A stretch of DNA of 64,000 nucleotides from Candidatus Latescibacterota bacterium (lineage in GTDB: Bacteria > Latescibacterota > UBA2968 > UBA8231): the NCBI GenBank assembly GCA_963422735.1, contig OY730476.1, positions 1,920,001 through 1,984,000 of the forward strand, written 5' to 3'. The translations under genes and the position numbers were made by a program. Positions within the stretch are counted from its first letter, which is position 1. Each line of letters begins with the position of its first letter. The notes beneath the pieces are model-generated. The model worked only from the letters and a program-made list of their open reading frames with translations. It was not told the origin of the DNA and ran no database searches. This document shows, in pieces, positions 609-25,108 of this stretch.

Positions 609-2036
609 CTAACCAACAATAGACGAGCGCAGCCAGACCCAGTACGCGGCCAGGTAGGTGAACACCGCAAAGAAGCCCAGCAAAACCAAATCGACGACAG
701 CAGTGCTAGCTAACGCCGCTGCGGAGAGGTTTTCTGCAAACACCGGTATCTGCTCCAACTCTACCTTTTGCGTGGACAGTCCGTTCTCGACAAGCGGAAT
801 ATGCAGACTACGCCCGTCCGCTCGGTCCATCGCCAAGAGCGTCTCCTCAAAACGTTGGGCATAACTCCTGACTTGATCGATGAAATGCCGATAGCGCGGT
901 AGACCCGTACCCGCCATTGCCTCCATGGCGTATTGGTACGGCCCCATAGGAGAAAGCCGGACGATGTTCTGTGCTAAATTGACCTGTTGTATCCGTTGCC
1001 GCAGCAAGGCGTTTTCTATTTCTTGATGATGAGCACGCTCTGACCGCAATAGGCTTGAAAATTCTTTGAGAAATACGGGGTCGCGCAGATGACCTTTCGC
1101 CACCGCTTCCTTGCTTACTAATTCCGCGGCCTTTTGTCGAAGAGGACCGTATATGTTCACCTCCTGTATATCTTCATAGGATAGCTCGGCAATAGCCTTC
1201 CCCATCTGCGGCCACAGCAGGACCACGCTCACCCAGACGAAAAGCACCGTCGTCAGACTGCCCTGCCTACTCGAACTATGAGCCGATATCAGCAGCCCCA
1301 ACGCGGTACAGCCCGCCAGATAGACCACAGAGATCAAAACCATGATGGCGATACGCACCGCGTGAGCGACATTCAACGACAGGTCGGCGAGAACTAGGAC
1401 GATTAGCAGGTTCAGAGTGAGGCCGAGAAGTAGCACCCCGATCGAGACCATCATCGCGCCCCAGAACTTGCCCCACAGCAGCGTATGGCGCAGCAGGCTG
1501 TTGGCCATGACCAGCTTGAGGGTGCCGCTCTCCTTTTCGCCGACAATGGCGTCGTGGGTGAAAAGGAGGGCGGCCAAGCTCAGCAAGACGCCAACGATGA
1601 ATACCCAGTCAATGGTAATAAAGGTGGAGAGTAGCGGAACATCCTCTAACTCGTTAGGAAAAGATAGAATCCAAGGCCAGTAGAAACTGCAATCGAATCT
1701 AGCCCACATCCCGTGACGTCTCGCTACGGCATCTATGTTATCTGGTAGTTTATTGTCGGCGAAACCGGCGCAAAATGCCAATTCACTAGGTTGCTTATAG
1801 AGTAGCCCAAGGCCCTTGATTAGAAGCATCTGTAGGCTTGCCGCTCCATTAGTACGCAATGTTCGGTGTTGCTGGGTGACGTTTTCTATATAGGTATCTC
1901 GCTCTAGCTGATAAGTACTATGGACGAGGCCTAACGCGTTGAGCACCATCAAGCTAACGCACAATACCAGCGCCAGGCTGAACCGCAGGCTTTGGATATG
2001 CGCGACGAATTCCCGTTTGATAATAGTTATCAGCAT
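609..2036 (-). CDS. ABC-2 type permease (subunit type 2, cassette C)
   Basis: N-terminal 'IIKREF', 'HDAIVGEKESGTLKLVMANSLLRHTLLWGKF' EAA-like motif, multiple TM helices. Paralog of 22126-23592 and 16413-17852. Confidence 0.9.
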   Translation of the reverse strand: MLITIIKREFVAHIQSLRFSLALVLCVSLMVLNALGLVHSTYQLERDTYIENVTQQHRTLRTNGAASLQMLLIKGLGLLYKQPSELAFCAGFADNKLPDNIDAVARRHGMWARFDCSFYWPWILSFPNELEDVPLLSTFITIDWVFIVGVLLSLAALLFTHDAIVGEKESGTLKLVMANSLLRHTLLWGKFWGAMMVSIGVLLLGLTLNLLIVLVLADLSLNVAHAVRIAIMVLISVVYLAGCTALGLLISAHSSSRQGSLTTVLFVWVSVVLLWPQMGKAIAELSYEDIQEVNIYGPLRQKAAELVSKEAVAKGHLRDPVFLKEFSSLLRSERAHHQEIENALLRQRIQQVNLAQNIVRLSPMGPYQYAMEAMAGTGLPRYRHFIDQVRSYAQRFEETLLAMDRADGRSLHIPLVENGLSTQKVELEQIPVFAENLSAAALASTAVVDLVLLGFFAVFTYLAAYWVWLRSSIVG

Positions 2037-2061
2037 GGTCTATTCCCCTCACCTGTTCTCC

Positions 2062-3585
2062 TCACCGAGTAACGTCATAGCGAGAAAAGAGCCCTATTAC
2101 GGCCAGCCATATTAGACCCGCATAGAGGAATAGAGGCAGGATGCTTGGCACAATTCTATCCAGCCGACGAGAAAGGGGTTCACGACGTTCCTCAAAGGCT
2201 GGCAGCGTGCGGGAGTCGAGGGTGCCTTTGTTATCCATAGCTTTGCCATCCTCGCCGATTATTTGCATCCCTTGTCCACTAAAAAAATCCTTGCTCCCGA
2301 ATGCGTCGTGTGCCCTTAGATACTCCAAGAGTTGCTTGCGGTACTGGCGAGCTTGATCGATGAAATCGTAAAAAACACCTGCATCCGTACCGGCCAAGCC
2401 GCCGGTAACCTCTAGATAGGCCCCTGCCGGCGTTATTCTTTGTAACTGCTCGTTTAAACGAATGAGCGACCGGGGTCGGTCTTCCCAAAGAGGGCCGCAG
2501 GCATTCCAAGCCTTTTGGGCATACTGAAGGCGTAAATTCTCCCCGGTTCTCAGAAGGCTTAGGAAGTTGGCTAGAGGAGCGTCCTCCTTAATCGGTCCGA
2601 TCGCAAAATGTGGGTTATTCCCAGGGCCCCCTGTCCCATACATATTACTGATCAAGTGTAGTGGGGGGTAGTCATCGCCCATCTCTGCCGTACGTACCAA
2701 TCCATCAACCCGTTGTTGGTATTCGCGCCACAACTCGTCTTGCACAGCCTCGGCTGTCTGGGCATCCGCCTGCCGATGGAATTGCTGATTGATGAAAAAA
2801 ATAATGCTGCTCGGCAGGACAATCACCAAAAAGGCCCAAGTGAATAGACCGTATATCAGGCTCGTCGAAGTGTTGTGTGTGTAGCACGAGATGGCCATGC
2901 CAATCAGGTAGAATATGGCTATGTAAAATAGGGATATCGCCCAAATCCCAATGAGACCCATCCAATCGTCCCCCGTAAGCCGGATGTGCTCGGAAGCGAG
3001 AAGAAAGATCGAGACACCGAGAAAACCCAAGAAGATCGGTATGTTGAGGAGTGTAATACCACTGAGGAACTTGCCCGTCGCGATCTGTACTCGGGACACA
3101 TTCATCGTCAACACCAGTGATAAGGTCCCTTTTTCTTTTTCGCCGGAGATAGATTCACACGCAAGGAGAACGGCTAGCAACGATAGAAAGACTTGGATGA
3201 CATGAACGACATCAAACGAACCTATTATGGCGAGTAAGGAATTGCCAGTAGTCGATAGGGTATGCTTGTCGGTAGCGTAGGGTATCTCATATATCCCAAT
3301 AGGGACTACGGAGCTCTTTTGCTCGGTGACGCCCCGGTCAAAGACTTCCAGCGGACTCGGAGTACGGACGACCTTGGTCCGCAATACGGCATATCCATCT
3401 ATTTTGCGAAATTCGTCGGCGATTTCTGCGACGATTCGATCTTTCTCTGCCCGTGCTTTTTCATGACTCGCTATTCGCAGCAGCCCGAGGACCCATATAA
3501 GCGACACTATAATCAGGGTACAGTAGATAAAGCGTCGGCTGATTAGCTGCTCTAGCAGTTCTTTCCTCCAGATGGCTTTTATCAT
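2062..3585 (-). CDS. ABC-2 type permease (subunit type 1, cassette C)
   Basis: 'IWRKELLEQL', 'ESISGEKEKGTLSLVLTMNVSRVQIATGKF', TM helices. Paralog of 23600-25108 and 18934-20466. Confidence 0.9.
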   Translation of the reverse strand: MIKAIWRKELLEQLISRRFIYCTLIIVSLIWVLGLLRIASHEKARAEKDRIVAEIADEFRKIDGYAVLRTKVVRTPSPLEVFDRGVTEQKSSVVPIGIYEIPYATDKHTLSTTGNSLLAIIGSFDVVHVIQVFLSLLAVLLACESISGEKEKGTLSLVLTMNVSRVQIATGKFLSGITLLNIPIFLGFLGVSIFLLASEHIRLTGDDWMGLIGIWAISLFYIAIFYLIGMAISCYTHNTSTSLIYGLFTWAFLVIVLPSSIIFFINQQFHRQADAQTAEAVQDELWREYQQRVDGLVRTAEMGDDYPPLHLISNMYGTGGPGNNPHFAIGPIKEDAPLANFLSLLRTGENLRLQYAQKAWNACGPLWEDRPRSLIRLNEQLQRITPAGAYLEVTGGLAGTDAGVFYDFIDQARQYRKQLLEYLRAHDAFGSKDFFSGQGMQIIGEDGKAMDNKGTLDSRTLPAFEERREPLSRRLDRIVPSILPLFLYAGLIWLAVIGLFSRYDVTR

Positions 3586-23592: not shown

Positions 23593-23599
23593 GGTCCGT

Positions 23600-25108
23600 T
23601 CATCGCATAAGATCGTAGCGAGAAAAAAGCCTTATTACGGCAAGCCAACTTAGGCCCGCATAGATAAACAGAGACAGGAGGCCCGGCGCAATTCTACTTA
23701 GCCGTTCGGAAAGGGGCTCACGGTGCTCTGCAAAGACAGGAAGATCGCTGAGGTCGAGTGCCGATCTCTTAGCTGCTCTTTCCTCGGATGACATACCTGG
23801 TTTACCTATAAATTCCATGCTCCCGAACGCGTCGTGCGCCCTTAAATAGTCCAACAGTTGATCTCGGTACTGACGAGCCTGATTGATAAAATCGTAAAAA
23901 CCCCCCGCATCCGTACCGGCCAAGCCCCCGGTAACCTCTAGATAGGCCCCTGCCGGCGTAATCCTCTGCAACTGGGTGTTTAGGCGGATGAGCGACCGGG
24001 GCCGGCCTTCCCAAAGAGGACTGCAAGCATTCCAAACTTTTTGGGCATACTGGAGGCGTAGATTCTCCCCGGCCCTCAGAATGTTTAAGAAGTCGGCTAT
24101 GCGGGCATCCCTCCGAATCGATCCGATATTGAAACCCGGCGTACTCCCACCGTCATACCCAAACGCCCTAGCGACCAAGTATATCGGGGGGTAGGTACGG
24201 TCTATCCCCGCCGTACGCACCAAGTCGTTCGCCTGTCTTTCGTGCTCGCTCCACAGTTCGTCTTCCAGAGCCTTGGCTTTTTGGGCATCCGCTTGCCGAT
24301 GGAATTGCTGATTGACGAAAAATGTAATGCTGATCGGCAGGACAATCACCAAGAAGGTCCAGATGAATAGGCTGTATATCAGGCTCGTCGAAGTGTTGTG
24401 TGTGTAGCACGAAATGGCCATGCCAATCAGGTAAAATATGGCTATGTAAAATAGGGAAGCCATCCAAGTTCCGATGAGGCCTACCCAGTCGGCCTCTGTA
24501 AGCCGGACATGCTCAGAAGCAATGAAAAAAATTGCCAGACCGAGAAAGCCTAGGAAGATAGGTATATTGAGGAGCGTAATACCGCCCAAGAATTTGCCTA
24601 TCACGACCTGCATTCGGAAGACGTTCGTCGTCAGCATCAGTGCTAGGGTGCCGTCTTCTTTTTCTCCTGAAATAGACTCGCAGGCGAAGAGAATGGCCAA
24701 CAACGCTAAAAAGATTTGGATGACATGAACGACATCCAATGAACCTATTATGGAGAGTAAAGGATTGCCAGTGGTCGCTAGGGTATGCTTATCGGCAAGG
24801 TAGGGTATCTGGTATATCTCAATGGGCACTACGGAACTCTTTTGCTCGGTAACGCCTCGGTCAGTGACTTCCAGCGGGCTCGGTGTGCGGACGACCTTGG
24901 TCCGCAATTTGTGGTAACTATCTATCTTGCGGAGTTCGTCGGCCGTTTCTGCGACTATGCGATCCTTCTCGGCCTGTGCTCTTTCGTAACTTGCTATTCG
25001 CAGCAGTCCGATGACCCATATAAGCGATACTGTAATCAGGATACAGTAGATAAAGCGCCGGCTGGCTAGCTGCTCTAGCAACTCTTTTTTCCAGATGATT
25101 TTTATCAT
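23600..25108 (-). CDS. ABC-2 type permease (subunit type 1, cassette A)
   Basis: Close paralog of 2062-3585. Confidence 0.9.
   Translation of the reverse strand: MIKIIWKKELLEQLASRRFIYCILITVSLIWVIGLLRIASYERAQAEKDRIVAETADELRKIDSYHKLRTKVVRTPSPLEVTDRGVTEQKSSVVPIEIYQIPYLADKHTLATTGNPLLSIIGSLDVVHVIQIFLALLAILFACESISGEKEDGTLALMLTTNVFRMQVVIGKFLGGITLLNIPIFLGFLGLAIFFIASEHVRLTEADWVGLIGTWMASLFYIAIFYLIGMAISCYTHNTSTSLIYSLFIWTFLVIVLPISITFFVNQQFHRQADAQKAKALEDELWSEHERQANDLVRTAGIDRTYPPIYLVARAFGYDGGSTPGFNIGSIRRDARIADFLNILRAGENLRLQYAQKVWNACSPLWEGRPRSLIRLNTQLQRITPAGAYLEVTGGLAGTDAGGFYDFINQARQYRDQLLDYLRAHDAFGSMEFIGKPGMSSEERAAKRSALDLSDLPVFAEHREPLSERLSRIAPGLLSLFIYAGLSWLAVIRLFSRYDLMR

Follow-up and report, generated by a model that had tools for sequence, protein, structure and literature searches.

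Why do paralogous permeases with well-conserved transmembrane (TM) cores differ so sharply in a few external segments, and do these segments follow the cognate peptide? This question is raised by a 64,000-nucleotide stretch of DNA from a Candidatus Latescibacterota bacterium (assembly GCA_963422735.1, contig OY730476.1, positions 1,920,001 to 1,984,000; hereafter the window), which carries three cassettes, A, B and C. Each encodes a type-1 and a type-2 permease of the ATP-binding cassette (ABC)-2 kind, a cysteine-rich peptide and one or two copies of a secreted protein of about 300 residues (P300), and all genes concerned lie on the minus strand. The genome, a single 4.95-Mb contig, contains a second locus at 383.5–421 kb with four further permease pairs, four peptides, extra P300 copies and a second block of ABC ATPase, TolC-like outer-membrane efflux protein (OEP) and NEW3-domain protein. 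The genome totals are thus seven type-1 and seven type-2 permeases, seven peptides and at least 11 P300 paralogs. A preliminary description had proposed that the permease loops recognise the cognate peptide and co-evolve with it. With moderate confidence, we lean towards a different reading, in which the variable segments are flexible, loosely constrained periplasmic loops that reflect relaxed constraint combined with gene conversion, and not peptide-recognition sites.

The type-1 permeases of cassettes A and C are identical at 369 of 507 positions and the type-2 permeases at 359 of 493 (~73%). Every loop string quoted in the preliminary description was found in the minus-strand open reading frames (ORFs), and its statement that the A and C permeases are alike except in discrete segments is borne out by both windowed identity and a shuffle test. 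In 20-residue windows, A/C identity drops to 0.20 at residues ~303–313 and ~434–444 of type 1 and to 0.05–0.25 at residues ~101–106 and ~285–307 of type 2, against 0.8–1.0 in the TM cores. For the shuffle test, the differing positions were shuffled 20,000 times and the densest 37-residue window was scored. Type 1 differs at 139 of 507 positions with a maximum of 26 in one such window, and type 2 at 116 of 475 with a maximum of 27; neither value was matched in any shuffle (0/20,000 each), so that a uniform spread of the divergence was not seen.

Only one variable segment per protein had been listed before. These segments are real, but each protein has two, and the unlisted ones are the densest (Table 1). 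Segment 1 of the type-1 permease A is situated between the helices 271–299 and 338–382, with a predicted local distance difference test (pLDDT) score below 50 at residues 316–329 and an entropy peak in 36 homologs, while segment 2 shows the top entropy together with gaps in the A/C clade and a pLDDT below 50 at residues 436–441. In the type-2 permease A, segment 1 carries an indel within the TM1-TM2 loop, and segment 2, directly after TM5 in the TM5-TM6 loop, contains a 13-residue indel relative to C. The same segments are the most variable and indel-rich ones across all seven paralogs of each type in this genome, and they coincide with the entropy peaks among 36 A/C-clade and 29 D–G-clade metagenome homologs. 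All relatives considered in this work, whose loci are referred to by L numbers, are metagenome-assembled genomes.

All six permeases of the window match PF12679 (77.6–97.6 bits against a cut-off of 27.2). PF12040 (DUF3526; gathering score 25 bits) is matched by type 2 of A, B and C (33.2, 27.0 and 34.9 bits, respectively) and by type 1 of B (34.4 bits), while type 1 of A and C scored 22.5 and 21.0 bits, below the cut-off. Hydropathy analysis gave six segments in type 1 and six to seven in type 2, where TM3/4 is split by the window rule. The AlphaFold2 (AF2) model of the type-1 permease A, built from a 69-sequence alignment (pLDDT 82.9, predicted template modelling score 0.81), displays six long hydrophobic helices with a helical insert of ~200 residues between TM5 and TM6. 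Its best fold matches in the Protein Data Bank (PDB), obtained with Foldseek, are ten NosY chains of NosDFY (E 2.5e-5 to 7.9e-4), of which 7o0y_D ranks first (E 2.5e-5) and 7o0z_E superposes with a root-mean-square deviation (rmsd) of 3.7 Å over 262 columns. Sequence profiles likewise gave a single convincing match in the PDB, again NosY (E 3.6e-13).

All four hot segments fall inside the long TM1-TM2 or TM5-TM6 loops, and the stretches of the type-1 A model with pLDDT below 50 (109–113, 316–329 and 436–441) coincide with variable stretches. Both loops are predicted to be periplasmic because of the NosY homology, an orientation to which the basic N termini also point, and this agrees with the earlier proposal that the variable segments are extracytoplasmic. 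With segments taken from the hydropathy analysis, the A/C difference rate is 0.31 in the periplasmic regions of both types, compared with 0.22 (type 1) and 0.16 (type 2) in TM regions and 0.21 and 0.14, respectively, in cytoplasmic regions.

Between A and C, the ratio of non-synonymous to synonymous substitution rates (dN/dS) over the whole gene is 0.30 for type 1 and 0.26 for type 2. The preliminary description had suggested dN/dS as a check, and the outcome is divided: one 30-codon window of the type-1 A/C comparison (residues 291–330) reaches 1.0–1.5, but phylogenetically independent close pairs stay below 1. These pairs, eight for type 1 and seven for type 2, were taken from 15 related Latescibacterota loci and gave pooled dN/dS values of 0.52 in the loops versus 0.20 elsewhere for type 1, and 0.38 versus 0.15 for type 2. 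Positive selection in the loops, considered on the strength of the A/C window, was therefore not upheld; the loops are under relaxed constraint, with purifying selection about 2.5-fold weaker, and there is no sign of positive selection in them. A mutational hot spot was ruled out for type 1, since synonymous divergence is not raised there: the proportion of synonymous differences (pS) stays flat at 0.32–0.42 while that of non-synonymous differences (pN) climbs up to 0.41. External diversifying pressure, as on a phage or toxin receptor, was set aside because the loops belong to an inner-membrane protein behind the outer membrane.

The contrast between cores and loops was also found in tandem pairs of single genomes. 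In the within-genome tandem type-1 pairs L046, L036, L016 and L005b/c, the cores contain identical DNA runs of 282, 206, 755 and 449 nt, respectively, and in 4/4 pairs both synonymous and non-synonymous differences are concentrated in the loop bins. This pattern is a gene-conversion signature, in which conversion tracts stop at, or cannot enter, the divergent loops. The same process is visible at cassette scale in this genome: between A and C, the sigma-factor genes are 99–100% identical in DNA (synonymous rate, dS, 0.017) and the DUF1573 genes 95–99% (dS 0.14), the permeases have a dS of 0.55–0.58, and the peptide region is unalignable. Since A-type and C-type cassettes coexist in another species (L005a versus L005b/c), A and C represent old paralog lineages whose flanks were recently homogenised here. 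In the reading that we favour, two ordinary processes make the loops stand out: weaker purifying selection in them, and gene conversion between paralogs, which would keep the TM cores near-identical and leave the already divergent, indel-rich loops unconverted.

Two arrangements elsewhere look like recombination scars in peptide genes. In L006 (9661–9897), a peptide gene of the alpha type continues, in another frame, into the 3′ end of a GT2 glycosyltransferase gene. In L005a (L005:8431–9562), an insertion of ~1 kb stands between the peptide leader and a Cys-rich core of a different kind.

Whether the loops follow the peptide can be judged from the cassettes of related loci. In most A/C-clade cassettes, a peptide ORF is situated between P300 and type 1, and three types can be distinguished: alpha, with two adjacent Cys near the start of the core and six Cys in total, beta with four Cys, and gamma, which is homologous to beta, with six. 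If the loops bound the cognate Cys-rich peptide and co-evolved with it, so that each permease pair were specific for its own peptide, they would lie on the appropriate side of the membrane, in the periplasm, where a Sec-exported peptide would be. In the A/C clade, the peptide-core distance indeed correlates with the type-1 loop distance (Mantel r 0.45, p 0.01; n = 12 cassettes), and equally with the backbone distance (r 0.45), and loop and backbone distances are themselves correlated (r 0.85). Once the backbone is controlled for, the partial r is 0.15 (p 0.32) for type 1 and 0.05 (p 0.49) for type 2 (n = 10 cassettes), and the D–G clade, with ten type-1/peptide pairs, yields r 0.17 (p 0.16) and a partial r of 0.09 (p 0.31). 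Peptide specificity would also fit the alpha-type cassettes (A and L005a), whose loop variants and indels are peculiar to them at the deepest split, the persistence of the loop islands despite gene conversion, and the L046 tandem copies, which are identical outside the loops while the loops differ by 23% and the peptides by 50%.

Direct swaps argue the other way. A beta and a gamma peptide stand beside near-identical loops both in L010 versus L011 (loop distance 12%, peptide-core distance 68%) and in L005b (gamma) versus L005c (beta) of one genome (9% and 78%, respectively), and L010 and L013 have identical peptides (0%) beside loops that are 25% apart. No loop residue common to the cassettes of one peptide type was seen in the compared loop strings, and in four of 19 A/C-clade cassettes (L012, L015, L018 and L007a) the gap preceding type 1 lacks a peptide ORF. 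Permeases cluster by genome or lineage in maximum-likelihood trees (L005b+L005c 100/99; L010+L011+L013 100/99), while P300 clusters by peptide type, with support of 99/98 for the beta clade and of 98/94 for a clade that unites gamma, peptide-less and C cassettes. Hence, loop divergence tracks the permease backbone and not the peptide type. With three non-significant partial Mantel tests, the swap cases and a loop dN/dS below 1, the proposed recognition of, and co-evolution with, the cognate peptide fails, and we regard it as improbable. More generally, conserved cores and variable loops in paralogs do not speak for co-evolution with a ligand until the phylogeny of that ligand has been compared.

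Several observations weigh against relaxed constraint and conversion as the explanation. Besides the A/C window of elevated dN/dS described above, the recent tandem pair L016a/b has 6.5 non-synonymous versus 0.5 synonymous changes in the loops (the loop patch resembles the sequence of another paralog). Loop islands occur in every within-genome pair, and selection for paralog-specific loops gives the same pattern, so that the islands admit both a neutral reading, in which divergent, indel-rich DNA is refractory to conversion, and a selective one, in which paralog-specific loops are kept. The Mantel samples are small, with 10–12 cassettes, and gene conversion blurs their backbone control. Finally, the loop distances of type 1 and type 2 remain correlated when both backbones are controlled for (partial r 0.76, p 6e-4, n = 15).

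This co-variation fits a role in subunit pairing, and the loops might thus specify something other than the peptide, namely cognate type-1/type-2 pairing that prevents mis-assembly, or docking of the cassette's own P300. Seven pairs facing one ATPase type in the genome, the survival of the islands through conversion in all four tandem pairs, and the docking of NosD by NosY described in the passages available from PMC13685413 would suit such a role. The co-variation is equally expected, though, if both loop sets escaped conversion and retain an older shared history, and P300 clades do not match permease clades: the L005b and L005c permeases are sisters, while their P300s fall in different clades. 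We consider this role unlikely. The permease pairs could also be self-protection pumps of the LanFEG/PmtCD kind, which would rid the membrane of peptides made by the cell itself rather than export them via TolC. Two different ABC-2 permeases with one ATPase would be in keeping with this, as would the match of the ATPase to TIGR03740 (E 3e-44, below the cut-off) and the presence of PmtCD among the weak fold matches (6xjh_A, E 0.16). On the other hand, a trans-envelope path is suggested by the genes for a TolC-like and a bitopic periplasmic protein, which stay linked to the permeases even in distant phyla, and no lantibiotic synthesis genes occur among the ORFs scanned; this explanation seems quite improbable to us, although self-protection and export are not mutually exclusive.

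A broader possibility, which we find doubtful as a whole, is a modular platform: one ATPase/NEW3/TolC engine would serve up to seven interchangeable heterodimers, each with a hypervariable peptide and an NTF2-like P300. P300 would then co-diversify with the peptide like an immunity or carrier protein with its toxin, and the loops would survive conversion as the identity of the cassette, through subunit pairing or partner docking. If true, bacteria would here parallel the way in which venom peptides diversify, together with an export or immunity apparatus to match.

If not the loops, which component follows the peptide? The distance between P300 proteins correlates strongly with that between peptides (Mantel r 0.79, p 2e-4). 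Complex prediction with mature P300-C and mature peptide C gave an ipSAE interface score of 0.57 (runs 0.57, 0.49 and 0.61), where the mark applied is reached by 116 of 157 solved complexes and 2 of 215 mismatches, and the range up to 0.60 by 18 of the 157 solved complexes and both of the 2 mismatches. The best of three controls scored 0.01, the runs share at least 80% of their contacts, and the partner has a pLDDT of 69 or more, which lends weak support to a predicted binding of peptide C by P300-C. P300 is thereby a better candidate than the loops for the specific partner of the peptide, as a putative carrier, chaperone or immunity protein; the two might also co-segregate simply through linkage.

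P300 matches no Pfam or NCBIfam family and is a lineage-restricted orphan with 156 homologs. A match of P300-B′ to TrmB (NCBIfam E 6e-4, far below the cut-off) was taken as chance. In the confident AF2 model (pLDDT 87), a helical hairpin is inserted into an alpha+beta domain. In VIA-align, residues 68–289 of this model resemble many NTF2-like chains at Z 6.2–7.3, for example 3rob (Z 7.2, rmsd 4.0, 117 aligned) and 4xzz (Z 7.3, rmsd 4.4, 129 aligned), all under Z 8 and hence below the level that excludes a merely common arrangement. Foldseek with the same model found no match at E ≤ 1e-3, and the best ESM Atlas match (0.88), to DUF3256 clusters, is a lead only.

Loci and species share near-invariant peptide leaders, but their cores diverge by 40–80% with the Cys spacing kept (window, L001/L002, L020–L046). 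Read by eye, the leaders are putative Sec (SPase I) signal peptides with a basic n-region, a hydrophobic h-region and small residues at −3/−1, except that peptide C lacks the usual Ala at −1. Peptide C aligns with nine beta/gamma peptides with C30, W41, C43, C49 and C66 invariant. Peptide A has no Pfam or NCBIfam match; relatives with the same leader style were found in L014 and L028. Conotoxin-style families are animal venom genes that combine a conserved signal sequence with a hypervariable core on a Cys framework, and the present peptides resemble them in their near-invariant leaders, divergent cores and kept Cys spacing, by analogy only.

What, then, might the permeases do? In relatives, the shared parts of the locus are far more conserved than the cassette parts: identity to the window is 90–97% for the ATPase, ~90% for GT2, 78–87% for NEW3 and 79–85% for the OEP, versus 66–84% for the permeases and 55–73% for P300 (A/C-clade copies). 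In three of four distant loci scanned (Aminicenantes, Sedimentisphaerales and Acidobacteriota), OEP, NEW3 and ATPase occur together with two or three DUF3526 permeases, while the fourth (Phycisphaerales) contains permeases and an ATPase fragment only. From this conservation, it follows that the five-gene module is ancient and that the permease pairs multiplied in the Latescibacterota lineage.

We propose that the type-1/type-2 pairs would be interchangeable inner-membrane halves of one trans-envelope ABC machine, whose other parts would be the single ATPase, associated with the permeases by gene linkage, the NEW3-domain bitopic protein and the TolC-like protein. The NEW3 protein has a hydrophobic anchor at both the N and the C terminus and a coiled-coil-like N-terminal part, has no PDB sequence relative at E ≤ 0.1, and is presumed to be a periplasmic linker. 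By analogy, the peptides may be carried through the inner membrane by Sec and form disulfides as they fold; permease pair, NEW3 and TolC-like protein might then handle them in the periplasm for export, self-protection or both, with P300 perhaps handing the peptide to the machine. Most likely, the machine uses ATP for work on periplasmic cargo, which would be the Sec-exported Cys-rich peptides. The earlier suggestion that the permeases act on the periplasmic side is thus plausible, given the conserved TolC-like linkage and the periplasmic work of NosFY.

Two precedents bear on this proposal. In the sections available of PMC13685413, ATP drives events in the periplasm through NosFY, and NosFY(D) (PDB 7o0y, 7o0z) shares with the present system the six-TM ABC-2 fold, a separate ATPase and work on the periplasmic side. 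Unlike Nos, the locus encodes two diverged permeases (~24% identical) that would form a putative heterodimer, a ~200-residue helical insert (DUF3526) between TM5 and TM6, and a linkage to TolC-like and NEW3-domain proteins; NosD, NosL and NosZ were not found among the locus ORFs scanned with Pfam/NCBIfam, a scan that did not extend to the rest of the genome. MacAB-TolC, as far as the available text of PMC5985334 describes it, expels a Sec-exported protein toxin, heat-stable enterotoxin II (STII), from the periplasm through TolC, with an ABC engine that does not itself take the cargo through the inner membrane. The locus likewise has a TolC-like gene in the operon (TIGR01844 E 9e-22, below the cut-off), and transport by the present system is putative. 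Unlike here, MacB is a four-TM FtsX-type protein and MacA an HlyD-type adaptor; the present permeases are six-TM ABC-2 proteins, no HlyD-family protein was matched by Pfam in the locus, and the candidate linker is the NEW3-domain protein. STII is small and disulfide-bonded.

LanFEG has two different permease subunits. LanFEG/PmtCD resemble the present system in combining ABC-2 permeases with a separate ATPase to handle the producer's own peptides; they differ in being Gram-positive, in their short loops and in lacking an outer-membrane partner. The ATPase scores 151.3 bits against TIGR03740 (lantibiotic protection), far below the cut-off of 309.75, and LanB, LanC and LanM are absent from the scanned ORFs. 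The GldAFG transporter of Bacteroidota gliding motility is matched weakly and below the cut-offs, GldF by type 1 (E 8e-9) and GldA by the ATPase (E 2e-41). GldG is an accessory protein anchored at both ends, and the topology of the NEW3 protein resembles it; in contrast, there is no GldG family match here and the locus content differs. Combined, the permeases belong to the ABC-2/NosY-like family and constitute neither a Nos system nor a MacB-type pump nor LanFEG.

No published description of the multi-cassette system or of the five-gene module was found. A full-text literature search returned no paper on DUF3526, and the available part of PMC12993501, on Latescibacterota genomes, has no passage on the system and no occurrence of ABC, TolC, bacteriocin or cysteine-rich. 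The loop pattern itself is ordinary, as surface loops outpace TM cores and gene conversion sharpens the contrast. Of greater interest is its setting, a recombining multi-cassette locus built on a cross-phylum five-gene module. Should the machine export peptides from the periplasm, MacAB-TolC would have a second, unrelated counterpart for the same task, and DUF3526 and NEW3-domain membrane proteins would gain a function.

Table 1. Positions of the genes and variable segments in the window (aa, residues; ~, approximate)
Feature	Position	Strand	Remarks
Type-1 permease, cassette A	2062..3585	-	507 aa; ABC-2 with helical periplasmic insert; PF12679 E 1.2e-21
Type-1 A variable segment 1, residues ~299-337	2575..2691	-	listed in preliminary description; identity to C down to 0.20
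Type-1 A variable segment 2, residues ~429-458	2212..2301	-	newly listed; densest window 26/37
Type-2 permease, cassette A	609..2036	-	475 aa; PF12679 E 3.2e-25, PF12040 E 9.7e-8
Type-2 A variable segment 1, residues ~96-118	1683..1751	-	listed in preliminary description; identity to C 0.25
Type-2 A variable segment 2, residues ~284-322	1071..1187	-	newly listed; densest window 27/37
Type-1 permease, cassette C	23600..25108	-	502 aa; variable segments ~24101-24214, ~23750-23827
Type-2 permease, cassette C	22126..23592	-	488 aa; variable segments ~23224-23307, ~22588-22728
Type-1 permease, cassette B	18934..20466	-	510 aa
Type-2 permease, cassette B	16413..17867	-	484 aa
Peptide A	3668..3868	-	66 aa; signal-like leader, Cys-rich core (6 Cys)
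Peptide C	25333..25536	-	67 aa; 4-Cys core of beta type
Peptide B	20610..20897	-	95 aa; Cys-rich
P300-A	3965..4864	-	secreted, ~300 aa, without known family
P300-C	25539..26513	-	
P300-B	18058..18876	-	272 aa
P300-B′	15390..16400	-	336 aa; divergent paralog
Extracytoplasmic function (ECF) sigma factor, cassette A	5173..5676	-	heads cassette; Pfam Sigma70_r2 + r4_2
ECF sigma factor, cassette C	26637-27176		heads cassette; twin of A copy
ABC ATPase	5905..6627	-	only one of the locus; PF00005 E 1.5e-30
TolC-like outer-membrane protein (OEP)	6652..8184	-	PF02321 E 2.4e-35
NEW3/NPCBM_assoc protein	8043..9638	-	PF10633 E 7.6e-13
DUF1573 protein, cassette A	1..603	-	ends cassette, runs past window edge; PF07610
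DUF1573 protein, cassette C	21173-22122	-	frame-split
Tetratricopeptide repeat (TPR) protein	10191-11444	-	
GT2 glycosyltransferase	11526-12566	-	
Transglutaminase-like protein	12580-13959	-	
GT1/MGT-like glycosyltransferase	13899-14966	-	

In the order of transcription, cassette A comprises the ECF sigma factor, P300, the Cys-rich peptide, the type-1 permease, the type-2 permease and the DUF1573 protein, and the same gene order is found in cassette C (27176–21173). Cassette B (20897–15390) has the order peptide, type 1, P300, type 2 and P300. Between B and A lie the genes for the GT1-like, transglutaminase-like, GT2 and TPR proteins, followed by NEW3/NPCBM_assoc, the TolC-like protein and the ABC ATPase. 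The genes from TPR to GT1 adjoin cassettes in relatives too, with 83–92% identity.

The ATPase/OEP/NEW3 block (~3.7 kb; window 5905–9638, genome C1:383576–387273) occurs in two copies with protein identities of 100, 100 and 99.6%, the identical second ATPase being encoded at genome position 383579–384298. Its GC content is 0.61–0.64, compared with 0.48–0.53 in the cassettes. The second locus (L001/L002) also contains debris (genome 388718–389559, 404893–405893 and 401660–401821), namely a split P300 gene, a split TPR gene and a 53-aa fragment of the NEW3 protein with 82% identity to its N terminus; the locus recombines actively.

The four runs considered for expression consisted of fragmentary contigs. 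One contig, joining 5013 to 5156, was considered as a processed RNA and rejected, as it matches the shorter C-type spacer; it probably derives from a paralog, and nothing was concluded on expression. At the other end of the cassettes, the DUF1573 gene of C is divided into the ORFs 21586–22122 and 21173–21622 with a frame change near 21620–21634, while the A copy is intact to the window edge. The DUF1573 proteins (1–603 and 21586–22122) contain a Cys-Gly-Cys motif and weakly match the NCBIfam OS_HP2 family (seleno)protein (E 4e-9, below the cut-off).

The ORFs of the GT1-like and the transglutaminase-like protein share ~60 nt, read in different frames, both here and in relatives (L007–L017), whereas they form a single ORF of 836–840 aa in the second locus; this could be a conserved overlap or a frameshift. 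A 58-aa ORF at 20980–21156 is a remnant of the GT1-transglutaminase N terminus, as judged from the 836-aa protein of the second locus. Elsewhere in the genome, away from both main loci, C1:947446–948956 (L003) and C1:38846–39615 (L004) contain isolated copies of P300 and short fragments of permeases.

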